Assembly (NCBI GenBank): GCA_965217895.1 | Contig: CBDCJV010000002.1 | Coordinates: 864,001-928,000, forward strand | Source of the DNA: Waterburya sp. | Lineage (GTDB): Bacteria > Cyanobacteriota > Cyanobacteriia > Cyanobacteriales > Xenococcaceae | DNA: 64,000 bases | Reading direction: 5' to 3' | In this document: piece by piece, positions 31,754 through 46,858 of the stretch | How the letters are laid out: the number at the start of each line of letters is the position of its first letter | Numbering within the stretch: position 1 is the stretch's first letter | Program-made: the position numbers and the translations under genes | The notes under the pieces: generated by a model | Database searches by the model: none | What the model saw: only the letters and a program-made list of their open reading frames with translations | Told to the model about the DNA's origin: nothing

Positions 31754-33058
31754 CTAGCGATCGCGATGGGTAAAAGGTTTAGCATCTGCGCCTGTGTAGG
31801 TGGCTGCAATATGACCATCGCCAGTTACCTTGTATTTATAGGTTACTAAGCCTTCTAAGCCAACAGGACCACGAGGAGGCATTTGTTGGGTGCTGATGCC
31901 AACTTCTGCACCAAAGCCATAGCGAAAACCATCGGCAAAACGGGTTGAACAGTTATGATAGACTCCAGCAGCATCGACGCGATTTTGAAATATGACTGCG
32001 GTTTGATTATCTTCGGTGACGATCGCATCGGTATGTTTTGAGCCATATTTGTTGATATGAGCGATCGCTGTTTCTACTGAATCAACTATCTTAATCGCTA
32101 AAATTAAATCGCTATATTCTGTTTTCCAGTCGTGTTCATCAGCAAGTTTGACCTCAATTATCTTGCTAGCTGCTTCATCTCCCCTTAGCTGCACGCCTTC
32201 TGCTTGTAAAGCTTTAGCTATTTGGGGCAAAAACTCTGCTACAATATCTTGATGAACTAATAATGTCTCGATCGCATTACAGGCTGCGGGATAATGAGTT
32301 TTTGCATCGACGGTAATTTTGATGGCTTTATTAATTTCTGCTGCTTTGTCTAAATACAGATGACAGATACCGTCAGCATGACCCAATACAGGAATACGAG
32401 TATGATCCTGAACGTATTGCACAAAGGAGTTAGAGCCTCTGGGAATAATCAGATCTACATATCGATCTAGCTTTAAAAGCTCTTTAATTTCTTCTCTGGT
32501 GGTTAATAACTGTACTGCTGCTGGATCTACTGCCGTAGATTTCAAAGCCTGTTGAATAACTTTTTTTAATATCCGACAAGAATTAATTGCTTCAGTGCCA
32601 CCTTTTAAAATTACCCCGTTACCAGACTTAATCGCCAAACTGGTAATTTGAATCAAGGCTTCAGGACGCGCCTCAAAAATAATTCCTAGCACTCCTAAAG
32701 GACAGGTAACTCGTTTTAAAATCAATCCCTCGTCCAATTGGCGATGAATTTGATTTACGCCAATGGGATCTTCTAGTTTAGCTACATCCCGCACGCCAGC
32801 GATCGCTGCTTGCAGTTTAGATTCTCCCAACTTAAGTCTGGCATACAGTGCGGGCGCAATATTATCCGCTTTTGCTGCCTGTAGATCTTTTTCATTACCA
32901 GCTAAAATTTCTGAGTGGGCTGCTTCTAAAGCCTGTGCCACGGCTTCTAAGGCAGAATTCCTGGCTTCTGTAGATAATACAGCTAGTTTTCCTGCTGCTG
33001 TGCGAGTTTGTTGAGCAATTTCAATTAAAGAAGGTGATGCTATCTCAAAGGCAACCAT
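31754..33058 (-). CDS. proA: Gamma-glutamyl phosphate reductase
   Basis: [59 protein letters not shown]. Confidence 0.96.
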
Positions 33059-33165
33059 ACTTGTTACTGAATATTCTGGAGTATCAACAATTTTAACGGA
33101 TTGAGTTAACAGCTAACATAAAGCTTACTGACTCTTCATAACTTCCTCAAATTTGCCAACTATAG

Positions 33166-33918
33166 TTGAAATTAATATTGAGATTGGTAAGAACAATGAA
33201 AACAGTTTTTTCTAATAGACGAGAAGCAGGAAAAAGATTAGCTACAGAACTTGCTGCTTATGCTAATCATCCTCAAGCAATAGTATTGGGACTACCTCGT
33301 GGTGGCGTACCTGTAGCGTATGAAGTTGCCAAAACTCTAAATCTTCCCTTAGATGTTTGTTTGGTCAAAAAATTAGGTTTGCCTGACCGTCCAGAAACAG
33401 CGATGGGTGCAGTTGCCGAAGATGCACTGTTACCTAACTACTGTGGCAACATTACTGTTATCGATCGAGACACGGGTGAAATTCACGGAATTGATTCCCA
33501 ACAAATTCAAGCGATCGCTGCTCAAGCAAAAGTTGAATTAAGATGGCGCGATCGCTGTTATCGAAGCTTCCGTCCGATGCTAAAAATCTCGCAGCGTATT
33601 GTTATCGTTGTTGATGATGGTATTGCTACGGGTCAAACTATGCAGGCTGCGGTGACTGTTTTGCGTCAACATCAACCAGAAAAGATTATCATTGCTACTC
33701 CCGTTGCTGCTTTGCCAGCTATAGAAAAATTAGCAACTCAAGTAGACGATTTTGTTTGCTCAATTAAACCAAAATCTTTAGGTGCAGTGGGCTTTTGGTA
33801 CGAAGATTTTACTCAAACAACAGACCGAGAAGTAGGCAATTTACTTTCTCAAGTGACTTACAAAACCGCCCAAGGCGGTGAACGAGTGACTGTTGACCAA
33901 AATTGTTTATTAGTATAA
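33166..33918 (+). CDS. Phosphoribosyltransferase family protein
   Basis: LGLPRGGVPVA, VVDDGIATG, GAVGFWYEDF; start likely MKTVF. Confidence 0.88.
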   Translation: MKLILRLVRTMKTVFSNRREAGKRLATELAAYANHPQAIVLGLPRGGVPVAYEVAKTLNLPLDVCLVKKLGLPDRPETAMGAVAEDALLPNYCGNITVIDRDTGEIHGIDSQQIQAIAAQAKVELRWRDRCYRSFRPMLKISQRIVIVVDDGIATGQTMQAAVTVLRQHQPEKIIIATPVAALPAIEKLATQVDDFVCSIKPKSLGAVGFWYEDFTQTTDREVGNLLSQVTYKTAQGGERVTVDQNCLLV

Positions 33919-33949
33919 ATAGTCTGGCAACAACCTTGTTGTTTACTTT

Positions 33950-34651
33950 TTACTGTTTATCTAGCCATTCTGTAAATAGACGCTCGATAACTTGATGACG
34001 TATTTCATTAAATTCTGGTTGGATAATTTCCTCAACAAAAATTAAATGAGCTTGTTTATCGACACGAATTGGTTTTAATACTTGAGGAGGTTTGGCTGCA
34101 AAAACAGCAGCAGAAATTTCTGGTTTTAAGTCGCTACGATTTAACAATCCTCGATAGCCTCCTCGACGGCGTAGTTCTATATCTGCAATATATTGATGTG
34201 CAATCTCCCAGAAGCTAAATTCCCGTTCTTGAACACCATAAAAAAGCTCTAAAGCTAAATCAAATTGAGGTAAAACTATTTCATAAATTACAGCTTTTGT
34301 ATAATCTAGCTGATGCTCATAAAAATAAGCCTCCGCTTTGTCTGCAAACAGGAAATTAGCTAATTTAGTCTTCAAGGCTCTAGTGTTGATTAAATATTCA
34401 AAATCTTCGGTAGTTAGACTATATTTTTTTAACCAGTTAAAAGTTGCTTCTGCACTAATCAAATTGTTTTGTAAACGAAAACTATCCGCGGCTTGCTGTG
34501 ACTCTTCCTCACTGAGAATTACTTGTTGGACTTGAGCGGTATTGTTAATAATTTTGTGAATACGAATATCTTTTAAGATCTTTGGTAGTTGACAAGAAAT
34601 TTTCAATTGCTGAATAATTTCTGGCTCGGAAATTGAAATCTTTTCTGACAT
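33950..34651 (-). CDS. PpiC/parvulin-related peptide maturation or foldase protein
   Basis: QQAADSFRLQNNL, FWEIAHQY...RRRGGYRG...LKPEISAAVF, typical of cyanobacterial type I secretion clusters. Confidence 0.8.
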   Translation of the reverse strand: MSEKISISEPEIIQQLKISCQLPKILKDIRIHKIINNTAQVQQVILSEEESQQAADSFRLQNNLISAEATFNWLKKYSLTTEDFEYLINTRALKTKLANFLFADKAEAYFYEHQLDYTKAVIYEIVLPQFDLALELFYGVQEREFSFWEIAHQYIADIELRRRGGYRGLLNRSDLKPEISAAVFAAKPPQVLKPIRVDKQAHLIFVEEIIQPEFNEIRHQVIERLFTEWLDKQ

Positions 34652-34699
34652 TTATTGAAATTATTTTTATTTACTGATAAGCGATCGCTCTTAGCTTTT

Positions 34700-34857
34700 G
34701 GCGTTGCATAATTAAGATACGAATTGGAGTAAAAAATAATGCACTATCCCGCCTGTGCGATCGCATCAATTATTTCTAATTACAGTACTCATCGAGTAGA
34801 AGAATCATTTGATATGTTCCTATTCTTGATTGATTTGTGTCTTGATTCGGCAACACC
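34700..34857. mobile_element. MITE-like element between the PPIase and HlyD genes
   Basis: Imperfect terminal inverted repeats GGCGTTGCATAATTAAGATAC / GTCTTGATTCGGCAACACC; related half-sites near 36980, 46741 and 52071. Confidence 0.5.
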
Positions 34858-34863
34858 TAACTT

Positions 34864-36891
34864 TTAAAGCTGTATTCCGCCTTTTTGTAGGCTTTTGAAG
34901 GGAGCAAGAAAAATATCGGCTAGACGACGCTGGCGAATAATAATTTCTGCTGTAGCAGTTTGTCCTGGGGTTAAGATAATATGGCGATCGCCATACTGGA
35001 TATAATTTTGGGCTAGCTGTATTTCTAGTTCGTAAAAATCTCCTTGTTCTTTATTGTCTGCGCCAGAAGCTGAAGATGGCGAGGTGGGAGTAACTCTAGA
35101 ATCAGGAGACACCCAGGTTAAAACTCCAGCAACTATGCCATAGTCTTGAAATGGGTAGGCATCGAACTTGATTTTTACTGGTAATCCAACTTTTAAAAAA
35201 CCACTTTCGCTGCTGTTCATTTTTGCCCGCAAAATTAAAGGAGAATTATATGGTGCAATCTGAGCTATGTTTTGTCCTGGCTGGACGACGGCACCAGGTT
35301 TTTGAATTGGTAATTGAAATACTGTTCCTTTAACTGGGGCATATAACACTCGTTGTTTTAACTGATAGTTTAGTCCTGAAATTATACTGCTAATTTGGGC
35401 GATTTCTCCTTTTGCAGTCTCAATTTGGGCATCGGTATTTTCAAATTCCTCTTTTGCTTTAAGTAAGCTCAAGTTATTACCCTTAACTAGAGAGTTATAA
35501 CCCCTTTGTTGTTCCTGCAAGCGTAATTCTGCTTGGTCTATTTCCGTAGAGGTCTGACGGACTAATTTCTCATAACCATTTTGTTGTTCTTGGTAGCTAG
35601 ATTTGGCTTGAGCAATTTCGGCTGCGGTGCGATTGAGGCTTTCTTTTGCTTCTTTGAATTCCCTGACCATATCCAATAAACGATCCTTAGCAATTACTCC
35701 CTGGCTGAAAGCATCCTGGTAACGAATAACTTTTTCTTGTGTCGCTTCTGTCTGAATTTGTGCCGTATTTTGCTCAGATTTACGGGCAGCGATCGCTTCT
35801 TTTGCTTGTTTTACTAAAGCAGCTTTTTCAGCCATTTGCGAGCTATAGCTAGATTTTGCTCCCAAAAAAGTCTGTTGTGCCTGATCGATCAAAGCCTGCT
35901 TTTCAAACTGTTGAGCTTGGCTTTGCTGTTCTTGCGCCCGTAATGATAGTAGCTGTTGGTCTTTTAGAGATTCCAGGCGATCGAGTTGATTTTGTTGGGC
36001 GGTCAATTTTTGCTGCTGTTGTTGTAATTCTGACTCAACAAGCTCAGATTCAAGCTTAAGTAAACTTTGTCCTGCTTTTACCTGCTCTCCTTCTTTGACC
36101 TCAATCGACATTACCGTACCGCTAACGGGAGAATCAAGATTAACAACTTTGCCCTTTGGCTCTAATTTACCCCTAGCAGAACCAACTTCATCAACTTTGG
36201 CGAATAATGCCCAGGGAACTGCTACTGCAACCAAAATCAAAGTTACATACAATAATCCTCTCAAAGAGACTCTTGGTAAAGTTTCGACCGCCTCTCGCGT
36301 CGAATCTGCCCATTCATTTTCTGCTAGAAGCTCTTGTGGTTTTTCTGGCTCGGTAATTATTTCTACTTCAGGAATTAATACTTTTTCCAATAGCCCAGGA
36401 CTGAATTGAGTATATCCTTTGTGTATAGAGCAGATAGCATCGGTTAATTCTTCTACTGGACTACCTTTTAACAAATAGCCTTTTGCTCCAGCATACAGAG
36501 CCTTTTGCAGGCGATCGCTGTCTTTGTGAGAACTAAGAACCAAAACCTTAGTATTAGGAAATCGCTGAGAAATAATATCTGTAGCTTTCACCCCATCCAT
36601 TTCTGGCATTTCTATGTCGATTAGAACCACATCTGGCTGCAATAATTCGACCTGTTCAACTGCCTGTTGCCCATTCTCCGCAGTGCCGACAATCTTTAAA
36701 TTAGTTACAGATTCAAGAGATTTGCTAATAAATTTACGGACAAAACTTTGATCGTCTACTAATAAAAGACGAATTTGAGGTTGGCTTACTTCATTAATAA
36801 TTTTATAGTTTTCTATCTTTTTCATATCTAAAGCAATTGTTGATTTTTGTTGGTTAATTACTACATTGCTAAATCGGGGTATGATTCTCAA
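34864..36891 (-). CDS. HlyD-family membrane fusion protein with N-terminal response-regulator receiver domain
   Basis: LLVDDQ, DVVLIDIEMPEMDG, GAKGYLLK; then TM, ARGKLEPKG, long coiled coil, KFDAYPFQDYG, LTPGQTATAEI. Confidence 0.9.
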   Translation of the reverse strand: MRIIPRFSNVVINQQKSTIALDMKKIENYKIINEVSQPQIRLLLVDDQSFVRKFISKSLESVTNLKIVGTAENGQQAVEQVELLQPDVVLIDIEMPEMDGVKATDIISQRFPNTKVLVLSSHKDSDRLQKALYAGAKGYLLKGSPVEELTDAICSIHKGYTQFSPGLLEKVLIPEVEIITEPEKPQELLAENEWADSTREAVETLPRVSLRGLLYVTLILVAVAVPWALFAKVDEVGSARGKLEPKGKVVNLDSPVSGTVMSIEVKEGEQVKAGQSLLKLESELVESELQQQQQKLTAQQNQLDRLESLKDQQLLSLRAQEQQSQAQQFEKQALIDQAQQTFLGAKSSYSSQMAEKAALVKQAKEAIAARKSEQNTAQIQTEATQEKVIRYQDAFSQGVIAKDRLLDMVREFKEAKESLNRTAAEIAQAKSSYQEQQNGYEKLVRQTSTEIDQAELRLQEQQRGYNSLVKGNNLSLLKAKEEFENTDAQIETAKGEIAQISSIISGLNYQLKQRVLYAPVKGTVFQLPIQKPGAVVQPGQNIAQIAPYNSPLILRAKMNSSESGFLKVGLPVKIKFDAYPFQDYGIVAGVLTWVSPDSRVTPTSPSSASGADNKEQGDFYELEIQLAQNYIQYGDRHIILTPGQTATAEIIIRQRRLADIFLAPFKSLQKGGIQL

Positions 36892-36990
36892 TTTGTCGTA
36901 TTTTGAACGAGAATTTAAAAAGCTAAGAGCTGATAGCTAAGAGCTAAGAACAGTATTACTCTCAGTTCCATACTTCAAATCAGCAACGCC

Positions 36991-39981
36991 TTAATTGCTA
37001 ATGGCTAACTGTTGTTGATTGAGATGATAATACTGACCCTTACTGCTCATTAATTGCCGATGAGTACCGCTTTCTACCAGTAACCCCCGTTCCATCACTA
37101 AGATTAAATCCGCATTACGAACCGTAGATAAGCGATGGGCAATGATAAAGGTAGTTTGATTTTTGAGAATAGTTTCTAAATTGTTTTGGATAATGCGCTC
37201 TGATTCGGCATCCAAATTGCTAGTAGCCTCATCAAGAATCAATAAACGAGGCTTACCCAATAAAGCACGAGCGATCGCCAGTCTTTGCCTTTGTCCCCCC
37301 GACAGCAATCCACCCCCTTCACCAATCTGAGTATTATATTTTAGAGGCATTTCGTTAATAAATTCTGCTGCCCCAGCCAGTCTACAGGCTTCATCAATCG
37401 CAGCTTTACTTGCTTGAGGATGCCCAATAGTTAGGTTTTCGAGAATTGTTCCGCCAAACAGAAAAGTATCTTGATCGACTACTCCAGCTTGTTCCCGTAA
37501 TGAATGGAGAGAAAGGTTGTTGATGTCGTAGCCATCGATTAAAATTTTACCTTTAGTGGTACTGTACAGTCCTAAAAGTAGTTTAGAGATCGTGGTTTTT
37601 CCCGAACCACTACGACCAACTAAGGCAACGGTTTGTCCTGGTTTGACGACAAAACTAAGATTTTCTAAGGTGTTGATCTCACTTTCTAAGTTGTAGCGGA
37701 AGGTAACATCTTCAAAACAGATATGTCCTTTAATTGGTGGCAACGTAGCTAAATTAAACCTAGACAAATCCTCTTCTGTCTGGGAATTAATCACATCATC
37801 AGTACGCTCGATCGCAATTCTAATTTCTTGAAAATCATTCCAGAGGGCAATTAAGCGTTTGAAAGGACTAATTACATTTGCTACCAACATATTGAAGGCG
37901 ATCAGTTGTCCAATAGTTAATTGATTCTGAATCACCTGCCATACCCCAAATAGCAGCAAGAAGCTAGAAACCAGGGTTTCCATAACTGAGGTAGCAACCT
38001 GGATTCTTTCTCGAATCATTTTGCCCTTAAAATTGATCCGCACAGCTTCATTAATTAAATCTTCCCAACGCCACCTTACTGTCCTTTCGACTCCCATAGA
38101 TTTGATAGTGCCGACTCCCGTTAAAGCTTCAATTAAGTAACTTCGTTCAGTAGTATCAGCATTAAATATTTCGCGAGAAATTCGCACTAAAAAAGGAGTA
38201 GAAATAAAAGTAGTAACTCCAAAGATGGGAATAATGATTAAAGCCAATAAAGACATTTGCCAGCTATACCAAAACATTAAACCTAGATAAATAAAAATAC
38301 TGAGAATATCTAGAACTGTGGTGATGGCATCTCCAGTAATAAAGCTCCTAATCTTACGATTCTCGCTAATTCTGGAGGTAATATCCCCTACATAGCGAGT
38401 TTCAAAATAGCTAAGCGGTAATTGTAGAGCGTGGCTAATAAAGCCGATAATTAAGGATAAATCAAGCTTGTTGGCAGTATGATAGAGCAGATAACGTCGC
38501 AGGCTAGAAAGGGCAATGTCAAACAAGCGGAAGATAATTAAACCTATACCTACTGCTACTAGGGTTGATACGCTGCGCTGTACTACTACCCGATCTAACA
38601 GTACCTGGGTGAAGATCGGTGAGAACAAACCGACAATTTGAATCATTAGAGAAGTAACAAAAACTTCCAACAATACAAACCAATAAGGTTTTAGCAATGC
38701 CGTATATTTCCAGAGATCTTGTTTGGCTTCCCCTGCTTGTTTAAATTTCGCTGTCGGTGTCAGCAAAACAATATATCCAGTCCAGCCAGCAACAAATTCT
38801 TGACGGGTTAAAATCTTTCTGCCAATAGCAGGATCGCAGATAATTACTTGGCTTTTTGTGACCTGATAAACAACAATATAATGGTTTCCCTGCCAGTGAG
38901 CGATCGCAGGTAGTTCTTGACGCGCTAAGGCTGGTAAGTCAGCTTTACGAGGACGCACCGTAAAACCCAGAAATTCTGCTGCCCTAATCAAGCCTTTAAT
39001 GGATGTACCAGCCCGATCTACATTGGCAATATGACGTAACTGATTGACGCTAAAAGTTTTGCCCCAATATTTGCCCACCATTACCAAACAAGCGACTCCG
39101 CAGTCAGATGCACTGTGTTGCTTGTGAAAAGGATAGCGTCTTAACCGCTGTTGCCACCACTGAGTAATTCTGGTTCTGGGAGTAGGAAAATAAAATTGGT
39201 TATCCTCAACTTCAGAATCTTTTTTGGTTGTCTCAGAGGGTAAAACCTGCTCTAATTTTGCTAGAGAAATTCGATTCTGACTAGGGACTGGCTGGATAGA
39301 GGTTAGCTGGGTTCTATTTCTGTCTAGGCTATAAAGTTCTGTTGGTTCACTGACTAACCACTCGCCATTTTGAGGTAATTTATCAACTTCGTAAAGATTA
39401 CTAGGAGTGATTTTTGTGCCTGATGAATGGATAATTTCTCCTTGACGCAAAAGCCAAAGTTCTTGTTCTAATAGAGACTTTGGTAAACTACCCTGCTGTA
39501 GCTCATGTTGTTCTAAAAGCCGCAGCAAAGGCAAAATATCTTTTTTAGATTCAGCTTTACCTTGCTGATAGCGTAAAAGTAAATCTAGCTTCATTCCCTG
39601 AAGATAGAAAATAGATTCTAGCTGTTGATTTTCTGCCACTAAAGATTCCCAGCTAGAGCGATCGAGATAGCCTAACTTTAAACCTAATGAGGCACGTACT
39701 GCATAGGGTTTTAGACTGCCAAGCGGAAACAAGGTTATTTGCCCAAACCAACCTTCAGACAAAGAAATAATTAAATTGTCATCATGATCTAGTAACCTCG
39801 CTTTGCCTTCAATAATTAAATAGACTCCAGCCTCGGAAGTTTGAAAATTCCAGAATAGTTCTCCTGGTTTTGGTTCAATGATTTGTAATTTTCGCAGGCA
39901 GCTTTCTAGCTGTGCAGAGTCAAAAATATTATTTAAAGAAGAATTTAAATTTTGTTTTAAATTTTGTTTTGAAAGCACCAT
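36991..39981 (-). CDS. C39 peptidase-containing ABC exporter (PCAT) with degenerate N-terminal cNMP-binding-like region
   Basis: QHSASDCGVAC (catalytic Cys), HWQGNHYIVV, CDPA; TM domain; GRSGSGKTT, LSGGQRQR, ILDEATS, IAHRLST. Confidence 0.93.
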   Translation of the reverse strand: MVLSKQNLKQNLNSSLNNIFDSAQLESCLRKLQIIEPKPGELFWNFQTSEAGVYLIIEGKARLLDHDDNLIISLSEGWFGQITLFPLGSLKPYAVRASLGLKLGYLDRSSWESLVAENQQLESIFYLQGMKLDLLLRYQQGKAESKKDILPLLRLLEQHELQQGSLPKSLLEQELWLLRQGEIIHSSGTKITPSNLYEVDKLPQNGEWLVSEPTELYSLDRNRTQLTSIQPVPSQNRISLAKLEQVLPSETTKKDSEVEDNQFYFPTPRTRITQWWQQRLRRYPFHKQHSASDCGVACLVMVGKYWGKTFSVNQLRHIANVDRAGTSIKGLIRAAEFLGFTVRPRKADLPALARQELPAIAHWQGNHYIVVYQVTKSQVIICDPAIGRKILTRQEFVAGWTGYIVLLTPTAKFKQAGEAKQDLWKYTALLKPYWFVLLEVFVTSLMIQIVGLFSPIFTQVLLDRVVVQRSVSTLVAVGIGLIIFRLFDIALSSLRRYLLYHTANKLDLSLIIGFISHALQLPLSYFETRYVGDITSRISENRKIRSFITGDAITTVLDILSIFIYLGLMFWYSWQMSLLALIIIPIFGVTTFISTPFLVRISREIFNADTTERSYLIEALTGVGTIKSMGVERTVRWRWEDLINEAVRINFKGKMIRERIQVATSVMETLVSSFLLLFGVWQVIQNQLTIGQLIAFNMLVANVISPFKRLIALWNDFQEIRIAIERTDDVINSQTEEDLSRFNLATLPPIKGHICFEDVTFRYNLESEINTLENLSFVVKPGQTVALVGRSGSGKTTISKLLLGLYSTTKGKILIDGYDINNLSLHSLREQAGVVDQDTFLFGGTILENLTIGHPQASKAAIDEACRLAGAAEFINEMPLKYNTQIGEGGGLLSGGQRQRLAIARALLGKPRLLILDEATSNLDAESERIIQNNLETILKNQTTFIIAHRLSTVRNADLILVMERGLLVESGTHRQLMSSKGQYYHLNQQQLAISN

Positions 39982-40529
39982 TGGGAGTTTTTAAGTTGAG
40001 ATATAGATGCTGGATTAAGATCCTCGATCGCAATACCGCATTTGTCTTTGGTAAATACTTTTTGATGGTTTAGTTTTTGCTGTTTTTTGGTTGACAGTCC
40101 CATCTGCTTGAGTAAACGATTAACGTGGCGATCGCTTATCTCGATTCCTAACTCCTGCGCCAGATGCTTGCTTAACCACTTTGCCGTCCAGCGTTCAAAC
40201 GAATACCCATAATCTTTTGGGCTATTGATAACCAGTTTTTGCAGACGATTTAGATATTCATCATTTACTGTTTTTGGTCTACCCACAGAATGCTCTTGCC
40301 AAGAACTTACTTTTTCTGTTTTGGCGATCGCCATCCAATATCTGGCTGTATCTCTAGAACAACCCAAGGCAGAACAGATTTCTGTCTGGGACTGCCCCAT
40401 ACGAGCGCGAAGCACAATTTCTAGGCGACGACGCTTAGTTTCATCTAAGTGGACTGGAATATCTTCGGGAATTATCTGCGCCAGTAAAGAAGATAATTCT
40501 TTTATTTGATTGACTTCCTGTTTTTTCAT
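39957..40529 (-). CDS. Transposase-like (IS630-type) HTH DNA-binding protein lacking a DDE domain; probable regulator of the export operon
   Basis: RRLEIVL...SQTEICSALGCSRDTARYW, GRP, SPKDYGYSFERWTAKWLSKHL; overlaps the exporter start. Confidence 0.8.
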   Translation of the reverse strand: MKKQEVNQIKELSSLLAQIIPEDIPVHLDETKRRRLEIVLRARMGQSQTEICSALGCSRDTARYWMAIAKTEKVSSWQEHSVGRPKTVNDEYLNRLQKLVINSPKDYGYSFERWTAKWLSKHLAQELGIEISDRHVNRLLKQMGLSTKKQQKLNHQKVFTKDKCGIAIEDLNPASISQLKNSQWCFQNKI

Positions 40530-41103
40530 TACTCTGCTTGTTTGAAAACTTTATAGCCGTTAACTAGAACTTTTTAGATCATCGCTAATCTACTGTTAAC
40601 TAGACATTAACTTTTACGAAGACATAATAGCCTCCATTGTGTCTTTAAATTAGTCATTATTTTAATATTTCAAACTGAGCCAACTAACAAAAAATATGTT
40701 TATCTAAGAAATAATGATACAACAGCAAAGCCTTTTGATTAGCTCAAAGAATCTTAAATTTAAATTTAATCTAACCGCCTAATATAAGCCATAATGGGAT
40801 TCATTCCGTATCATAACTACTATTGAAAGATATATATAGTAATTTAAAATACATTAGGGGACTCGAACAGATATCTAATCTAAAGTTAGTGTCTTTTTAA
40901 ACTATCAAACATTAGAGACATAATTATTTGCTTAAACTAATTTATGTCCAACTATTTGAGCAATTTAGGTTGATTTTGAATGGTTTTTTAAATTAAAACT
41001 AAGGCTAGATGAAAAAACGGTTATGGCAATTTAACATTCCATCAGCCTGATTCATCGCTAGTTTTGTAGATCATCTAATCAGCACTAAAGGAGAATTAAA
41101 GCA

Positions 41104-41361
41104 ATGGGAATTAATATTAACGATTTAAACCAAAAGCCTCTTGGTGGAGAATTGTTGTCTGGTTCTGAGAGCATTATGGACAACCTTCGCGTTCTTTCTG
41201 AAGAAGAATTGAGCATATCTGGTGGTGGCGGCTCCTGTGGTGGCGGCAGCAAAGGCAGTAAAGGCGGCAGTAAAGGTAGTAAAGGCGGCAGTAAAGGTAG
41301 TAAAGGCGGCAGCAAAGGCGGTGGATGTTACAATCCATGCCCCCCCCCTTGCCACCCTTAA
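41104..41361 (+). CDS. Double-glycine RiPP/secreted peptide precursor with GGSKGSK-repeat, Cys/Pro-rich core
   Basis: RBS AAGGAG upstream; leader MGININDL...GGELL...LSEEELSISGG; core GGSCGGGSKGSKGGSKGSKGGSKGSKGGSKGGGCYNPCPPPCHP. Confidence 0.88.
   Translation: MGININDLNQKPLGGELLSGSESIMDNLRVLSEEELSISGGGGSCGGGSKGSKGGSKGSKGGSKGSKGGSKGGGCYNPCPPPCHP
41242..41319 (+). repeat. Coding 21-bp tandem repeat (3 full copies + partial)
   Basis: GGCGGCAGYAAAGGYAGTAAA x3 + GGCGGCAGCAAAGGC; variation only at synonymous positions. Confidence 0.95.
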
Positions 41362-41383
41362 AAACTTTGTCCCTTGACAATAG

Positions 41384-41461
41384 GTAGCTTCAAAATACTC
41401 CATCAAAGGCGATCAATAACTTAATATTAGCGATCCTTTTGATGGAGAAGCTACTTTTTTT
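41384..41461 (+). terminator. Long stem-loop with T tract between precursor and kinase genes
   Basis: GTAGCTT...CTCCATCAAAGG...CCTTTTGATGGAG-AAGCTAC followed by T7. Confidence 0.7.
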
Positions 41462-41504
41462 CTAATTAATTCAAATTAATACTTTTTCTTAAAACTGATT
41501 TGTT

Positions 41505-42707
41505 ATGGGATTAATTCTTAGTGCTGACAATGTAGTTAATTTCTTAAAGCAGCACCAGATTTGTCCTCCAGATTTTCAACCTACTGTTCCAGTAATCTGT
41601 AAAGAGAGTAAAAACTTTAATTTAGTAGTTCAGTCGAAAGATAGTCCTAGTTTTTTAGTTAAGCAAAATCGGCTTGATAGTCAAGGGAAAACTTCAGGGA
41701 ATTTATTTAGCGAATGGTTAGTCCAAGAACTAGTCAATAACTTTAACGAGCTAGCTTCTATTCAACCTTTAATCTCGGAAGTAGTATTATTTGATCGAGC
41801 CAACTCAATTCTGGTATCGGTTTTCTACGATCAATATATCTCTATTGATGACTATTACGAGGTTCGCCAAAGCTATAATCCGCAGATAGCTCAGATGGTT
41901 GGAGCCAATTTAGCTCAAGTTCATCGCACTACCTATCAAAAGCCACATCTCAAAAAGTTTTTGAGTCAATACTTTAATTTAGAACTAGCAAAAAAACCAC
42001 CAGGATTTATTAGAAGATTAAATAGTCTTAGTCCTAGTATTTTTGGTGAAATCTGTCCTGATGGCTTAAATTTTTATAAACTATATCAACGGTTTCCTAG
42101 TCTTAATCGAGCAGTTGTAGAACTGTACGACGATCTACAGCCAGCTTGTCTTACCCATGATGACTTGAAACTAGATAACTTTATTATTGATAATAGTTTT
42201 GATGCCGATCTTGATAGCATTAAGCCAGAACAAATCAAGATAATTGATTGGGAATTGTGTTGCTGGGCAGATCCAGCAACAGATTTAGGAATGCTGATAT
42301 CTCAATATTTAGCAGAATGGCTTAATAGTTTAGTTGCTGATCCAAACCTGGAACTCGATATCATCCTCAGTATAGCTATCTGTCCTCTAGAAAAAATTAC
42401 GCCAAGTCTTAGAGAATTATTGCGAGGATATTTGAATGCCTTTCCCGAAATTATAGAGGATCGCCCTGATTTCGTAAGTAGAATTGTGCAGTTTGCAGGA
42501 ATTGGCATTCTCGATCGCTTAAGTTACCACGTTGAACATCATTATCCTTTCGACAATGATGCTCTTTGCAAACTACAGGTTGCCAAGAATTTACTTTGCT
42601 ATGCCGATAAAGGAATTAAAACGATATTTGGCACTACCGAAGCTGAGTTGATAGAACATTATAGCTCAAAAAAATTAAGTAATTTAAAGACTGTAGCCTT
42701 AAAATAA
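41505..42707 (+). CDS. APH-like phosphotransferase / peptide kinase (class V LanK-like)
   Basis: KNFNLVV, FLVKQ, LTHDDLKLDN (HxDxxxxN), IIDWE, DPATDLG. Confidence 0.85.
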   Translation: MGLILSADNVVNFLKQHQICPPDFQPTVPVICKESKNFNLVVQSKDSPSFLVKQNRLDSQGKTSGNLFSEWLVQELVNNFNELASIQPLISEVVLFDRANSILVSVFYDQYISIDDYYEVRQSYNPQIAQMVGANLAQVHRTTYQKPHLKKFLSQYFNLELAKKPPGFIRRLNSLSPSIFGEICPDGLNFYKLYQRFPSLNRAVVELYDDLQPACLTHDDLKLDNFIIDNSFDADLDSIKPEQIKIIDWELCCWADPATDLGMLISQYLAEWLNSLVADPNLELDIILSIAICPLEKITPSLRELLRGYLNAFPEIIEDRPDFVSRIVQFAGIGILDRLSYHVEHHYPFDNDALCKLQVAKNLLCYADKGIKTIFGTTEAELIEHYSSKKLSNLKTVALK

Positions 42708-42751
42708 CTCGATATAAATATAAAAATAAAATTAAGCTTAATTTTAAAATT

Positions 42752-43840
42752 ATGATTTCAGCGATCGCTTCTGCAAATCAGTCAGATTTAATAGCCCACC
42801 AGTTTAAGTTTAAACAGCAGCTAGAAAACGTTGTCGCTAAAGTGGCGATCGCCTCAAATTTTACGATCTCCTATGAAGATTTTGAACCTTTAGAAGTTAA
42901 ACCTCATCTTAAAGAGTATTTAAACCAAATCTCTCCTACAGAGCGCAATCAATATCTTGCAGCTAAACTGCAAACATATCTTTACAGTATTTTTTGTACT
43001 AGACTTAAGCCAGATCTCAATAATTCTTTGACTACTGAAGATACGACTAGGGTAGCTAATCGGATTAAAAAATGGTATAAAACCGAGTTTTACCAACAAC
43101 TTACTCAAAATAATCACGGTCAAGGTTACAGCGATCCTAATTGGTTAGTCACTAAGCAAGTAGATGATTATTGGCACGTCACCAAAAATCATCTAACCTT
43201 GCATATTAAAAATAGTCATCTTGTCGAAGCCTCAGAAAAATTATCTCTAGGAAAATTAGTGTCAATTAAAATGCCCTCAAACTTAGTAGATAGAGGTATA
43301 TATATTGCAGTGGGGGATAAAGGTTCAGCCAATAGTATAGGTGGCGATCGAGGCTCTATAATTAACCAACTGTATTTTAATGTTGACTCTCAAGGGGCAT
43401 TACGTCTGCTGGATGATTTAACTCAAACATTAAATCAAATCAAAGTTCCTTTTGATTTTAAAATTGCTTACAACGAGACAAAATTCGACGATCTTGATGC
43501 GGTGGTTTTAGAGTTTAGAAACAATGATTTCGATCTGATATATCCTGTAGTCCAAACTGCTTGTTACGAACGTCAAACTTATTTTCGCTCAGAGATCCCC
43601 TTCTTTTGCCAGTTTCTCTCCCCTGGTTTGGGGTTGGCAGAAAAACCGCGATCGCCAAAATTCGCACGAGAGAATATCGGGCAACACTATTGCGGTATCA
43701 TCGCCCAGGCTTTAGTCGAAATATGGCAGCAAAACAATTTAATTGAAAATAAATTAGATTATGTCCTAAATTACTTATCCGCAGGGGGGGTAGATATCGA
43801 ACGTCTTTATCTTAATCCTCATTTACAGAGCAATGATTGA
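42752..43840 (+). CDS. HopA1-family protein (class V LanY-like), apparently degenerate active site
   Basis: NHGQGYSDPNW, YIAVGD, LYFNV, PFDFKI, PGLGLAEKP, LYLNP. Confidence 0.8.
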   Translation: MISAIASANQSDLIAHQFKFKQQLENVVAKVAIASNFTISYEDFEPLEVKPHLKEYLNQISPTERNQYLAAKLQTYLYSIFCTRLKPDLNNSLTTEDTTRVANRIKKWYKTEFYQQLTQNNHGQGYSDPNWLVTKQVDDYWHVTKNHLTLHIKNSHLVEASEKLSLGKLVSIKMPSNLVDRGIYIAVGDKGSANSIGGDRGSIINQLYFNVDSQGALRLLDDLTQTLNQIKVPFDFKIAYNETKFDDLDAVVLEFRNNDFDLIYPVVQTACYERQTYFRSEIPFFCQFLSPGLGLAEKPRSPKFARENIGQHYCGIIAQALVEIWQQNNLIENKLDYVLNYLSAGGVDIERLYLNPHLQSND

Positions 43841-43929
43841 CAGAATGCAGGTATTAAATCTCCTGTTTAGAAAAAGTAAAAAACACGGCTCTTAATTAAA
43901 ATTTAATCTATCAACCAATCATTTTTATT

Positions 43930-44634
43930 ATGCCTATTGAACCTTGGTTTCCCCTTGTTGTCTATTATGCAGACTTAGAAGATGCCTCAAAACATAAAGA
44001 GTCTCTAGTATCTACAATTCTCAAGCTGGAAAAAGAAAATGGTTATCAAAGAAGAATCGATGCTGATATTGCCTGGACTGGAGATTTTCACGGAGTAGGA
44101 CATATTCATGAACATCCCAATTTTACTTGGATTGTTGAGCAAATGGAAGCTCACATTCTCCGTTATCTTGAAGAGTTGGGGATTGATTTAGACAAAATAG
44201 AATTGTATATTCAAAGAGCTTGGCCCATTGTGTCTCGTGAAAATCAAGCAATTCCTCCCCATGCTCATCACAATGCTCACGTCAGTGCCGTATACTATGT
44301 ATCCATTCCTGAAAGTGGTACTGCCAAATCTGGTGCGTTTACGATTTACAATGATGCGGGGATGAACGAAATTCTTGAAGGTATAGGAGACGAGTATACT
44401 AATGCCATTAAGAAAAGAAACCCATTCAACTATGAAACAGGATACTATGCGCCTAAAGAAGGAAGAATATTAATATTTCCCTCAAAGCAACGTCATGGCG
44501 TAGAAGCCAACGAAACTGGAGAGATCAGAATCTCATTATCTTTCGATGTTGTCATTACCTCTTCAGAAAATGGAGATCCTGGATTGCATGAATTTTTATC
44601 GCCCCCACCAAGCCAGTGGAAAAAATTTGGATAG
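43930..44634 (+). CDS. 2-oxoglutarate/Fe(II)-dependent oxygenase-like protein (TIGR02466-type)
   Basis: PHAHHNAHVSAVYY, PKEGRILIFPS, HGV, RISLSFD. Confidence 0.85.
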   Translation: MPIEPWFPLVVYYADLEDASKHKESLVSTILKLEKENGYQRRIDADIAWTGDFHGVGHIHEHPNFTWIVEQMEAHILRYLEELGIDLDKIELYIQRAWPIVSRENQAIPPHAHHNAHVSAVYYVSIPESGTAKSGAFTIYNDAGMNEILEGIGDEYTNAIKKRNPFNYETGYYAPKEGRILIFPSKQRHGVEANETGEIRISLSFDVVITSSENGDPGLHEFLSPPPSQWKKFG

Positions 44635-44816
44635 AAACAAAGGTAGTCTTGAAGAAGAGTCATTCCAACTAATTTCCTCTTTGCACCATTTCTTTAACCA
44701 ATGGAAGAAAAATGGCGATCGCTTCTTGTCGATCGATGATTCTAATTTTAATGAGCAAATCTGAAGCTAAAGCCAGTAAGTTTGCCGTGTGAATAAAACG
44801 ATGAACTCCAAAAAAT

Positions 44817-45737
44817 TTAGTCATGACGACGTGAGAAAGATTTTGCTTCGACAAAGAGATTTTTAATCTCTGGATGCTGACTACGAATTTTTGCTTCTAA
44901 ACGATCGATGGCCTCTGTTAGCTCTTCAACTGATAATTCTCGCTGAAAGATAATTTCAATATTAAGTAATACTTCGTCAGGTCCAAAATGCAATGTAAGT
45001 ACTCGCATTACTTCTTTAACGGCCCGATCTTTGGCTGCTAATTCGCGAATACTGTTAACCGTCGCAATATCAGCACTTTCACCTACTAATAAACCTTTAC
45101 ATTCATACGCCAGCAGAACAGCAACTATTGTCAAAATAATGCCAATAATAACCGAAGCTGCTCCGTCAAAATAAGGATTTTTTAATAAATGACCCAAGAA
45201 AACGCCCAAAAAAGCGACTATTAAACCTAGAAGAGCAGCAGAGTCTTCAAATAAAACCGTAAAAATAGTCGGGTCTTTACTATTTTTTGCTGCTTGCCAA
45301 ATGTTTCGATCGCCCTGGGATGATAATAACTCCCGATAAGCCACACGCCAAGATAATCCTTCAAACACGAACGCACAGCCTAAAACAATATAACTCCATA
45401 AAGGATCTTCTAAAGGAGACGGCTCAATTAAATGAGTTATGCCTTCATAAAAAGACATTCCACCACCAAGGGCAAAAATGAGAATCGCTACGATTAGAGT
45501 CCAGAAATATAATTCTTGACCATAACCAAACGGATGACTGGCATCTGCTGGTTTTTTACTGAGACGGATGCCCAATAATAACAGTAATTCATTGCTTGTA
45601 TCGACTACCGAATGAATACCTTCTGAGAGCATAGCCGAACTACCGCTAATTCCTGCTGCAATAAATTTAGTAATGGCGATCGCTAAGTTAGCAGCGATCG
45701 CCGCAAAAATAGTTTTTTTTGAGGAGTCAGATGCCAT
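44817..45737 (-). CDS. Cation diffusion facilitator transporter
   Basis: SEGIHSVVD, HPFGYG, FEDSAALLG, DGAAS. Confidence 0.92.
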   Translation of the reverse strand: MASDSSKKTIFAAIAANLAIAITKFIAAGISGSSAMLSEGIHSVVDTSNELLLLLGIRLSKKPADASHPFGYGQELYFWTLIVAILIFALGGGMSFYEGITHLIEPSPLEDPLWSYIVLGCAFVFEGLSWRVAYRELLSSQGDRNIWQAAKNSKDPTIFTVLFEDSAALLGLIVAFLGVFLGHLLKNPYFDGAASVIIGIILTIVAVLLAYECKGLLVGESADIATVNSIRELAAKDRAVKEVMRVLTLHFGPDEVLLNIEIIFQRELSVEELTEAIDRLEAKIRSQHPEIKNLFVEAKSFSRRHD

Positions 45738-45830
45738 AATCGGTTTAAGTAGTTAATTATAAGAGAAAACCAATACCGATAATAATGGACTAAGGAGTCG
45801 GCGACATACTGCCTAAACCTAAAAGCTTGT

Positions 45831-46172
45831 TCAGGTTTGCGGTTTAGATAAAGCTTGTAATTCCGACCAAGAATAGTGAGCGAGAATTTCATTTTCTCCC
45901 TGGGCTTCTCCTAAAACTTCCATCGCTTTTTGTTCGAGTTCTTCTAGATCTTCTCCTACTACATCACCAACTGCACCGCCAACTACCGCACCAGCGATCG
46001 CCCCCAATACCTTACCAGTTTTGCCGCCAATTAATTTACTACCAATCGCAGCACCAGCTACACCGCCACTTACCGCGCCAATTCCTGTTTCTATGGCGTT
46101 ATGCTTCGGTTGCTGAGTGAGTTCTTGTGTTTTTTGCTCTTGCCTTTCTTTATTCTTGTTTTCTTCGTTCAT
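45831..46172 (-). CDS. Glycine-zipper domain protein
   Basis: GIGAVSGGVAGAAIG...GAIAGAVVGGAVG. Confidence 0.7.
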   Translation of the reverse strand: MNEENKNKERQEQKTQELTQQPKHNAIETGIGAVSGGVAGAAIGSKLIGGKTGKVLGAIAGAVVGGAVGDVVGEDLEELEQKAMEVLGEAQGENEILAHYSWSELQALSKPQT

Positions 46173-46204
46173 CTTAGGCTATCCTCTCTTACTTTTTACT
46201 TTTT

Positions 46205-46325
46205 ACTCAAGGGGTCAAGCTGGAGAAATACCGCCTTTATACTGTACCTGTTCAAAGTCCCGTTCTCTCAAAGGCAACAGTAACAGTGCTGCGCCATAAA
46301 CTTTAGTATTGCCACCTACCCAATC
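46205..46325 (-). pseudogene. Isolated fragment of a GMC-family oxidoreductase
   Basis: Reads WVGGNTKVYGAALLLLPLRERDFEQVQYKGGISPA*PL; matches the VGGNTKxYGAAL...RDF...GISPxWP motif, with a stop at the Trp. Confidence 0.65.
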
Positions 46326-46858
46326 TAAATGCTTAACAGCTTAACAGGGCAAGAGATAGCAAAAAAGCGTCGAGCAAATAAGTTTCTATCAGCCAATACA
46401 TCCATTTTATTGCTAATTTCCTTTGCGATCTACTTTAATAGAGTAGATCGATTAAATGTCAGAGTTGTGTCAATGTCATAAAATTCAGCAAGTTTCATCT
46501 AATTGTTAATGAAGTAAGAAGTAACTGACCTCTGACCTCTGACCTGAAGCGAGCGAACATCAACGTTGAATTTAATTTTGTCCAACTACTTTAGAATCTC
46601 TGTAAAAACTTTAAAATAGTTAAATGGTTATTTGAATGGACTATTAGCCAAGATATATTTGGCTTTCCTAAGCTATCAATGTACGGCTCTTTCTCATAAA
46701 TCATTCCTGATTGCTATAGCTTTCTGAGGCTATTACGTTTAGGCGTTGCTAAATCACTAATTGTAGAAGTCATCTGTGGTAGATTAGACTTTAACTATGG
46801 AAAGTACTTGTCGTCTCTATAAATTGAAATTGGCAATTTTTATTTTATTTTTAAGCTT

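Follow-up and report, generated by a model that had tools for sequence, protein, structure and literature searches.

Positions 33950 to 44634 of a 64,000-nucleotide stretch of cyanobacterial DNA (Waterburya sp., contig CBDCJV010000002.1, positions 864,001 to 928,000; 'the window' below means this whole stretch) hold eight intact open reading frames (ORFs) in two divergent arms, one with a gene for a double-glycine peptide precursor followed by genes for a kinase, a HopA1 homologue and an oxygenase, and the other with the genes of a C39-type exporter. Our preferred reading, offered tentatively and held at somewhat less than an even chance, is that these genes make up a conserved peptide maturation and export system, an oxygenase-bearing branch of the cyanobacterial 'Family 1A' of Eyles et al. 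(2021), in which three leader-guided enzymes would act on the precursor before C39-dependent export. The proposal is built on the gene content of the locus, on its conserved linkage, on a conserved leader that is joined to hypervariable cores, and on purifying selection. What is new in the branch is the recruitment of an oxygenase of the TIGR02466 family, the low-complexity and mostly cationic cores, and apparent changes at lyase positions of the HopA1 homologue.

Conservation of the locus across cyanobacteria

Translation of the ORFs, with Pfam and NCBIfam scans, found every gene of the divergent locus intact and carrying the domains that an initial annotation had assigned from the sequence alone. 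That annotation had also remarked on the lack of a flavin-dependent Cys decarboxylase, a methyltransferase and LanC and on the presence of an oxygenase instead, and this holds: ORF and Pfam scans of the eight genes give neither a flavoprotein nor a methyltransferase, and neither LanC nor a second APH. (A LanC search across the whole genome gave no match either, but was uninformative, as control genomes were equally blank.) Its description of a complete modification and export locus is strengthened by gene-neighbourhood comparison, which reveals conserved linkage across cyanobacteria. A word-indexed search with the HopA1 protein returned 79 homologues, every named one of them cyanobacterial, and a scan of one genome per species gave 25 loci (L002-L026), 13 of which (L002-L014) carry HopA1 at 44-62% identity. 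The carriers of these 13 are Pleurocapsa, Hyellaceae, Xenococcus sp. PCC 7305, Waterburya, Acaryochloris, Thermosynechococcaceae and further metagenome-assembled genomes (MAGs), and the block is also present on eight metagenome contigs. With the window's proteins as tblastn queries, all eight genes were found in 6 of the 13 genome loci (L005, L007, L008, L010, L011 and L014); of the seven incomplete loci, L013 is a degraded copy and the rest run into contig ends. A co-linear arrangement, with the export genes downstream of the oxygenase on the same strand, is seen in L003, L004 and the metagenome contig L027; since both arrangements keep the exporter beside the enzymes, the linkage has outlasted rearrangement. 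The oxygenase gene is present in 14 of the 15 loci that reach beyond HopA1.

Purifying selection acts on all three enzymes, the ratio of nonsynonymous to synonymous substitution (dN/dS) lying between 0.04 and 0.11 in the oxygenase, between 0.05 and 0.21 in the kinase and between 0.20 and 0.37 in the HopA1 homologue, in comparisons that include pairs among the loci with Ser/Thr-free cores (dS was often above 1, so these ratios are approximate).

The distribution of the locus is patchy: of 200 other genomes in a sample of the order, only three have a close orthologue (at least 49% identity), and these three belong to the window's family; for its genus the count is 2 of 7 genomes. More distant HopA1 homologues turned up in 50 of the 201 sampled genomes. 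Several orthologous clusters show signs of decay and of mobile-element traffic. In L013 (7709-10750) only the C-terminal part of the ABC gene remains, abutting a truncated kinase gene, with no HTH (helix-turn-helix) gene and no precursor; in L002 (7790-9205) an ORF resembling TnpB by eye replaces the oxygenase; and in L010 (12184-13419) a TnpB-like ORF, again judged by eye, sits between the oxygenase and the precursors. The Waterburya locus L014 (12451-16832) has three different precursors downstream of the oxygenase, and after them comes another kinase/HopA1 pair, a divergent one (41% and 29% identity, respectively, to the window's proteins), giving two dehydratase-like pairs around one precursor set. 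At L024 (8581-11053, Anabaena sp. 4-3) a distant kinase/HopA1 pair lies among genes seemingly unrelated to peptide maturation or export; the next gene resembles a thioesterase by eye, and the surrounding 5 kb or so contain neither a double-glycine precursor nor an exporter.

The precursor peptide and its variable cores

The precursor gene (plus strand) specifies 85 residues. The leader, residues 1-41 (41104-41226), ends ...LSEEELSISGG, and is followed by a core of 44 residues, GGSCGGGSKGSKGGSKGSKGGSKGSKGGSKGGGCYNPCPPPCHP, encoded together with the stop codon by 41227-41361; the exact cut site inside the GGGG stretch is uncertain. The core is, as first annotated, a low-complexity Gly/Ser/Lys sequence, consisting of GGSKGSK units before a terminal CYNPCPPPCHP, and contains 17 Gly, 8 Ser, 7 Lys, 5 Pro, 4 Cys, 1 Tyr and 1 His. 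We take this small ORF to be a real gene because its leader is conserved in 24 other precursors, because an AAGGAG (Shine-Dalgarno) sequence is found 8 nucleotides before the ATG, and because a hairpin and a T tract lie downstream. Among 16 aligned leaders the mean column identity is 75%, and M1, I3, L8, L18, S19, E22, L28, R29, L31, S32, E35, G40 and G41 are invariant. A leader search of the window's genome found this one such precursor only.

The repeat units of the core are encoded by a 21-nucleotide tandem repeat at 41242-41319 (3.7 copies, 92% matches), and replication slippage in such an array would account for the differing repeat lengths among orthologous cores. The hairpin directly 3' of the gene (41382-41461, including the seven T residues that follow) has a predicted folding energy of -33.6 kcal/mol (z -6.4; none of 200 shuffles was as stable), and is likely to be an intrinsic terminator or an attenuator in front of the enzyme genes. 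A simple terminator scan missed this long hairpin, which RNA folding revealed. Strong hairpins also occur downstream of the precursor in L003, L007, L008, L011, L027 and L029, as judged against mononucleotide shuffles only. In the window's hairpin (41382-41456) two GCGATC half-HIP1 words face each other across the inner stem. Upstream, the AT-rich intergenic region between the two arms (40530-41103) contains 15 promoter-like sites, against 14.7 in shuffled sequences, so we claim no promoter; and no Rfam family reached its gathering score within 33000-46500.

With the genome loci, and eight metagenome contigs added by a scan with the leader alignment, the set including the window's own comes to 25 precursors. 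Their cores are hypervariable, of low complexity and mostly cationic. Some are (GK)n runs followed by RYYYH, RYYYKW, GRYW or GGYGCGCGSRYHH; some are (SK/SR)n runs flanked by Tyr and His; some are rich in Asn, Asp and Ser and end RYFYY; and the window's type is (GGSKGSK)n ending CYNPCPPPCHP. CGCG motifs are present in the cores of L003, L005, L014, L032 and L033. The number of Lys residues per orthologous core ranges from 3 to 22, and is zero in two non-cationic cores. Four of the 25 cores (L007, L008, L011 and L030) have neither Ser nor Thr, 14 have no Cys, and three lack Ser, Thr and Cys together. Tyr occurs in 23 of 25. Each core contains Ser, Thr or Tyr at least once, and those free of Ser and Thr have 3-6 Tyr each. 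Tyrosine was considered as a universal target and rejected, as L028 and L031 are the two cores that lack it. In the genomes of L007, L008 and L011 the (GK)n precursor within the cluster, a pure Gly-Lys core with an RYYYH or RYYYKW tail, is the sole strong match to the leader profile, with the proviso that two of these three genomes are MAGs and may be incomplete. In a Xenococcaceae MAG, a distant kinase/HopA1 cluster without an oxygenase gene (L018, 8458-8631) has the core GCCYCSYSGSKSKSKSKSKSKSYS after a ...DSESFLTEL...RGG leader, so (Ser-Lys)n cores are not confined to the oxygenase branch.

The three putative modification enzymes

The first enzyme gene (41505-42707, plus strand) encodes an LxmK-like, APH-fold kinase of 400 residues, which matches PF01636 (40 bits) and, by profile, the chain 9dk1_A ('Kinase'; expect value (E) 1.9e-4). 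Structure 9DK1 is LxmKY, the lexapeptide dehydratase (PMC12141560). Residues K53, H218, D248, W249 and E250, which are predicted to be ATP-binding and catalytic positions, are invariant in 21 sequences, including those encoded beside Ser/Thr-free cores.

The second (42752-43840, plus strand) encodes a HopA1-family protein of 362 residues that matches the whole of PF17914 (152 bits, profile positions 1-170 of 170); no NCBIfam model matched it. Its profile matches chain B (LxmY) of 9DK1 with E 1e-4, and its AlphaFold model (predicted local distance difference test (pLDDT) 82.6) has LxmY (9dk1_B) as its best Foldseek match (E 3e-17, template-modelling (TM) scores 0.65 and 0.73, 357 columns), an LxmY-like fold. 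The HopA1 proteins of the branch are about 33% identical to other cyanobacterial homologues and show branch-specific substitutions; within the branch Y184, Y208, N210, Y240 and further positions are invariant.

The third (43930-44634, plus strand) encodes a protein of 234 residues with the fold of 2-oxoglutarate (2OG)-Fe(II) oxygenases, which matches PF13759 (80.5 bits; cut-off 27) and TIGR02466 (98.2 bits; cut-off 62.5). Its model (pLDDT 93.7) has the double-stranded beta-helix fold, and the best Foldseek matches are 3bvc and 2rg4, both uncharacterised, followed by many 2OG oxygenases (probability 1.00 for all of these). The later matches are spread over PhyH-like and prolyl-hydroxylase-like proteins with TM scores of about 0.5, and with this spread, and the best two uncharacterised, the fold does not permit a substrate to be inferred. 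None of the three enzymes is better conserved than this one (79-97% amino-acid identity); H113 is invariant among 61 sequences and H111, H189 and R200 are at least 90% conserved. The family is large (1651 representative matches at E 1e-3 or better) and, judging from the titles of papers only, occurs in cyanophages; the literature on TIGR02466/PF13759 that we found deals with giant viruses, grapevine and cyanophages, and no title addresses function. The closest representatives (P0080-P0090, 44-49% identity) are N-terminal domains of proteins of 560-718 residues. Three of those scanned are fused multi-oxygenases, with an additional PhyH (P0080 and P0083) or 2OG-FeII_Oxy_3 (P0084) domain; in the others the C-terminal part matched nothing. 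The fusions hint at a possible multi-step oxidation, and nothing more.

The export arm

All four genes of the other arm are on the minus strand. The exporter gene (36991-39981; 996 residues) encodes a long-type C39 peptidase/ABC protein with Peptidase_C39 (PF03412, 138 bits) at residues 283-411, behind an N-terminal extension of about 280 residues that has a weak match to cyclic nucleotide (cNMP)-binding-like domains in Pfam, and with ABC_membrane (PF00664, 144 bits) and ABC_tran (PF00005, 120 bits). Peptidase, membrane domain and ATPase are thus in one protein, and the HlyD adaptor gene adjoins it. The translation contains SDCGVAC and GNHYIVV...ICDP stretches, which we take to be the C39 Cys and His motifs. 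Its scores fall below the cut-offs of TIGR01846, TIGR03796 and TIGR01193. The genome has two more loci for C39-peptidase ABC transporters, at G000:C2:788803-789189 and 1948408-1948806. C39 transporters process double-glycine leaders (PMC3140520).

The adaptor (34864-36891; 675 residues) is a fusion of a receiver domain (PF00072, 92.9 bits, residues 43-153) to an HlyD-type periplasmic protein (PF13437, 75.3 bits; TIGR01843, 238 bits, over the cut-off of 208.65), an arrangement in which a phosphorelay might conceivably gate export. Its orthologues align from residues 23-40 onwards, and the homologue in Chroococcus (L017) only from residue 193, and so without the receiver. The last gene of the arm (33950-34651; 233 residues) specifies a PpiC/rotamase-like accessory protein (PF13145, 32.8 bits; PF00639, 27 bits), which scores 62.6 bits against TIGR04500, 'peptide maturation system', under the cut-off of 180; the gene is syntenic in L005, L007, L008, L010, L011, L013, L014 and L017 (tblastn). 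No outer-membrane channel factor is encoded inside the cluster, the rest of the genome not having been searched for one.

The first gene of the arm (39957-40529; 190 residues), whose reading frame and the start of the ABC gene overlap by 25 nucleotides, encodes an HTH protein with matches to HTH_33, HTH_32 and HTH_28, and to positions 1-121 of 299 only of an IS630 model, the N-terminal part. It is no stray insertion-sequence remnant: the gene lies directly upstream of the C39-ABC gene in L002-L005, L007-L011, L014, L017, L027-L029, L032 and L033, and is a conserved member of the export module. Its product looks like the DNA-binding domain of a transposase that has been domesticated, and is probably the regulator of the module.

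Borders and host signature

We place the borders of the cluster at 33950 and 44634 because the PRTase and CDF genes that flank it in the window never accompany it elsewhere. The window contains 77 HIP1 sites, against 0.44 expected by chance; their abundance, together with the fact that all close relatives of the locus are cyanobacterial, supports the assignment to a cyanobacterial host. Twelve of the sites lie inside the cluster, at a density equal to that in the remainder of the window, and the G+C content of the cluster is similar to that of its flanks, falling to 0.34-0.35 in the intergenic region. The long residence that was initially read from the HIP1 sites fits their density but is tempered by the patchy occurrence described above, and the data fit a locus that is old enough to have taken on the host's HIP1 signature yet is patchily distributed.

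What might the enzymes do?

CaoK/CaoY and LxmK/LxmY dehydrate Ser and Thr by phosphorylation followed by elimination (PMC9486802, PMC12141560). On the reading that we favour, three leader-guided enzymes would modify the low-complexity core of the precursor: the kinase would phosphorylate hydroxyl groups of the core, which all 25 cores could supply from Ser, Thr or Tyr; the HopA1 homologue, in an LxmKY-like complex with the kinase, would eliminate the phosphate at beta-hydroxyl residues; and the oxygenase would hydroxylate independently. In the window's peptide up to 8 Ser could be converted to dehydroalanine, and the 4 Cys could add to dehydroalanines without a dedicated cyclase. The C39 ABC transporter and the receiver-HlyD adaptor would then cut after the Gly-Gly and export the product, presumably a secreted peptide, rich in Gly and strongly cationic, whose Cys/Tyr/His/Pro tail would be modified.

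A number of points tell against this scheme, the enzymatic steps of which we infer throughout. The kinase's sole NCBIfam match, to LxmK (NF038156), scores 72.7 bits against a cut-off of 315. For the oxygenase, no characterised member of the TIGR02466/PF13759 family was found in the literature or among structures, and its motif reads H-x-H...H rather than H-x-D/E...H, so that the carboxylate position of the iron triad appears to be occupied by His or Asn, if the ligands are correctly assigned. The HopA1 homologue raises a different difficulty. In CaoY, R187 and K219 are required for elimination (PMC9486802), and LxmY K221, R231 and Y238 appear from their spacing to correspond to CaoY K219, R229 and Y236. 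In a HMMER alignment K237, D247 and E254 of the window's protein stand opposite these three LxmY residues, and the columns are not conserved in the branch. Column 237 is K in eight of the 15 branch proteins, R in four, N in two and S in one (K in six and Q in seven of 13 other homologues); column 247 is variable, with Arg in three (in 11 of the 13); column 254 is E in nine, D in five, N in one and never Tyr (Y in seven, C in three, N in two and S in one of the 13); and column 206 is Q in all 15 (R in seven of the 13). The branch lyase may therefore be altered or inactive, which we regard as a lead rather than a result: LxmY is matched only weakly (E 1e-4), over no more than profile residues 219-331, and the mapping of catalytic residues is insecure because the 13 other homologues also vary at the same columns. 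In several Nostocales homologues Gln stands in the catalytic-Lys column. We also looked for a relationship between residue 237 and Ser/Thr-free cores, but it was imperfect: among the loci with such cores, L008 and L011 depart from Lys (N and S, respectively) and L007 keeps it, and N is also found in L002, whose core is Ser-rich.

A further objection comes from the cores themselves. As the sole strong leader match in the genomes of L007, L008 and L011 is Ser/Thr-free, Ser/Thr dehydration cannot account for the retention of kinase and HopA1 in them. Moreover, because cores without Ser, Thr or Cys are encoded beside a constrained kinase/HopA1 pair, and because the column aligned to the catalytic Tyr of the lyase is changed, lanthionine is not the conserved chemistry of the branch, and sulfur-bridged 'lanthipeptide' chemistry is probably not what the branch does. 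How, then, might the pair find hydroxyl groups in a Gly-Lys core? The oxygenase might provide them, by placing a beta-hydroxyl on Lys or on the Tyr and His of the tail, which the kinase would phosphorylate and HopA1 eliminate, with a net change of -2 Da per site. Such a sequence of steps would lead to phospho-hydroxy or dehydro residues at lysine or aromatic positions, a route undescribed for any RiPP (a peptide made on ribosomes and modified after translation). It would make sense of the co-inheritance of the oxygenase with the branch kinase and HopA1 (14 of 15 loci), since no oxygenase gene was found beside the more distant kinase/HopA1 pairs L015-L026; of the standing of the oxygenase as the most constrained enzyme, in both identity (79-97%) and dN/dS (0.04-0.11); and of the three genomes in which a Ser/Thr/Cys-free core is the sole strong leader match beside an intact and constrained kinase/HopA1 pair; and the branch-specific changes at lyase positions would suit a changed substrate. 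We nevertheless think it unlikely. We found no precedent in the literature; L002 keeps kinase and HopA1 without an oxygenase gene; the fold search gives no hint of an oxygenase substrate; in four other cyanobacteria, the neighbours of oxygenase homologues with 49-57% identity include no cluster genes; and the kinase is not strictly in need of a new hydroxyl, as the Ser/Thr-free cores still have 3-6 Tyr. Equally speculative, and to our minds unlikely as well, is the extension of this idea in which the oxygenase makes hydroxyls for the pair and the (Gly-Lys)n and (Gly-Ser-Lys)n products are adhesive, matrix or mineral-interacting peptides of rock-dwelling cyanobacteria, and not antibiotics. Such polycations would bear a resemblance to silaffins and mussel foot proteins.

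The altered lyase columns could instead mean that HopA1 has lost its lyase activity and become a structural or leader-binding partner of the kinase, so that a phosphorylated and hydroxylated polycation would be secreted. The column of the catalytic Tyr is E, D or N in 15 of 15 proteins, that of the Lys is K, R, N or S, and that of the Arg is Gln in 15 of 15. Since LxmK and LxmY are mutually required for solubility (PMC12141560), a non-catalytic HopA1 could still be under the selection observed (dN/dS 0.20-0.37). This outcome seems to us distinctly improbable, given the weakness of the LxmY alignment (over profile residues 219-331 only, at E 1e-4), the variation of other cyanobacterial homologues at the same columns, and the many invariant HopA1 positions (Y184, Y208, N210 and Y240 among them), such as an active site would have. 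A true class V-type lanthipeptide, in which Ser would be dehydrated, the four Cys would form lanthionine rings and the oxygenase would tailor the product, suits the window's own core, with its 8 Ser and 4 Cys, as well as the LxmKY-like structure of the pair and the CGCG motifs of several orthologous cores; but it accords poorly with the 14 of 25 cores without Cys (three of 25 having no Ser or Thr either), with the absence of a LanX-type second APH, LanC or LanD from the cluster, and with the confinement of the window's Cys to a C-x-x-x-C-P-P-P-C tail apart from the Ser repeats, and we hold it to be quite improbable. Least probable, and in our estimation very unlikely, is that the peptide leaves the cell without modification, as a common double-glycine bacteriocin or a matrix peptide, and that the three enzymes act on some other substrate. 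C39/HlyD modules do export unmodified double-glycine peptides in many bacteria (PMC3140520), and for some distant kinase/HopA1 pairs, L024 among them, the nearest 5 kb or so are devoid of precursor and exporter; against this, the genes for precursor, kinase, HopA1 and oxygenase are adjacent in two arrangements across distant cyanobacterial groups, and the leader has about 30 conserved residues before the double glycine, which would seem to exceed the C39 peptidase's own need.

Kinase/HopA1 pairs are among the commonest unexplained peptide-cluster signatures in cyanobacteria, with 183 clusters reported (PMC8153245) and homologues in 50 of 201 genomes in our sample of the order. The branch sharpens the puzzle by combining Gly-Lys-only cores with intact, constrained enzymes and, in 14 of 15 loci, a nearby oxygenase of an uncharacterised family. 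Its solution could be a second substrate class for the kinase and lyase, a non-lytic HopA1 partner, or an oxygenase that feeds the pair; and a function for the TIGR02466 oxygenase, if established here, would be the first for its family.

Relationship to known systems

The export arm has its closest described counterparts in the cyanobacterial double-glycine bacteriocin clusters of Wang, Fewer and Sivonen (2011; PMC3140520, citing Dirix et al., 2004), which likewise have an ABC transporter of the long C39 type, extended at its N terminus by about 300 residues, an HlyD partner, frequently a rotamase-domain protein, and Gly-rich double-glycine precursors. The window's cluster differs in its kinase, its receiver-HlyD fusion and its IS630-like HTH gene, none of which is mentioned in the accessible text of that paper.

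Thioamitides are the one published RiPP cluster type that we found with a kinase/HopA1 pair and a 2OG-Fe(II) oxygenase on the same peptide, in the form of the TsaC phosphotransferase, the HopA1-like TsaD and TsaJ, which is predicted to beta-hydroxylate His (PMC8153245). TsaJ belongs to PF05721 (PhyH), however, and the window's oxygenase to PF13759/TIGR02466; and thioamitide clusters are described as having a cysteine decarboxylase and methyltransferases (PMC8153245), where the window's cluster has neither. Thioamitides come from Actinobacteria. Their clusters carry YcaO/TfuA thioamidation enzymes, which the window's cluster does not, and we know of no thioamitide with a double-glycine leader and a C39 exporter.

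In class V lanthipeptide systems (CaoK-CaoY, LxmK-LxmY), as in the window, the genes for a split APH-fold kinase and a HopA1-fold partner lie side by side, and the model of the window's HopA1 homologue aligns with LxmY over its full length. It was on this pair that the locus was initially compared with the class V split dehydratase, and the structural side of that comparison is sound, as the profiles match both chains of 9DK1 and LxmY is the best fold match; the lanthipeptide frame is the part that misfits the cores of the branch. Characterised class V systems, as reported in PMC9486802, are from Streptomyces, whereas the branch members that we examined are cyanobacterial. Class V clusters have a LanX cyclase and usually LanD; the window's has no LanX, LanD or reductase, and neither LanX nor LanD was seen in the orthologous loci, where the search with the window's proteins could detect only their homologues. 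Class V cores carry Ser/Thr and Cys, as those of the branch need not, and the class V catalytic Lys, Arg and Tyr are not kept at the aligned HopA1 columns of the branch (by the weak alignment at E 1e-4).

The nearest relatives are in Family 1A. Eyles et al. (2021, Chem Sci; PMC8153245) catalogued 1,340 HopA1 proteins, 96% of them beside a phosphotransferase, and within Family 1A assembled 570 peptides from 183 HopA1/phosphotransferase clusters, all from cyanobacteria; these have a double-glycine leader that is conserved, their cores vary and conserve neither Ser nor Thr nor Cys, and the products are described there as undetermined. Cyanobacterial 'type-B' candidates were also mentioned by Xue et al. 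(2022; PMC9486802), whose set was pre-filtered for Cys and Ser/Thr. Thus, the locus, at first called apparently uncharacterised, is of a kind already catalogued, but in searchable papers we found no characterised product of any such kinase/HopA1 double-glycine cluster. The strings LLSGSES, RVLSEEEL, GKGKGKGK and Xenococcus are absent from the dataset text of PMC8153245, which may be incomplete and whose network 1 had a cut-off of 40% identity. Like Family 1A, the window's locus is cyanobacterial and has a HopA1 homologue beside a phosphotransferase, and the branch shares with it short precursors, a conserved double-glycine leader and hypervariable cores. Leaders of the form ...DSESF..EL..EEL..ILGG are given in the table of that paper for peptides of Stanieria and Pleurocapsa, among others, and the Family 1A leader (...DSESFL.EL..EEL..ILGG) of two peptides assigned there to network 1 resembles, by eye, that of the branch (...GSESIMDNLRVLSEEELSISGG). 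The branch leader profile finds the leaders of a Family-1A-type Chroococcus cluster (L017; E 3e-8 and 1e-4), in which the same HTH, C39-ABC, HlyD and PpiC module accompanies hydrophobic cores and no oxygenase. What sets the branch apart from Family 1A is the added TIGR02466 oxygenase, the cores of (GK)n, (GSK)n or (SK/SR)n repeats with Tyr/His/Cys tails, and the presence, usually, of one precursor per cluster.

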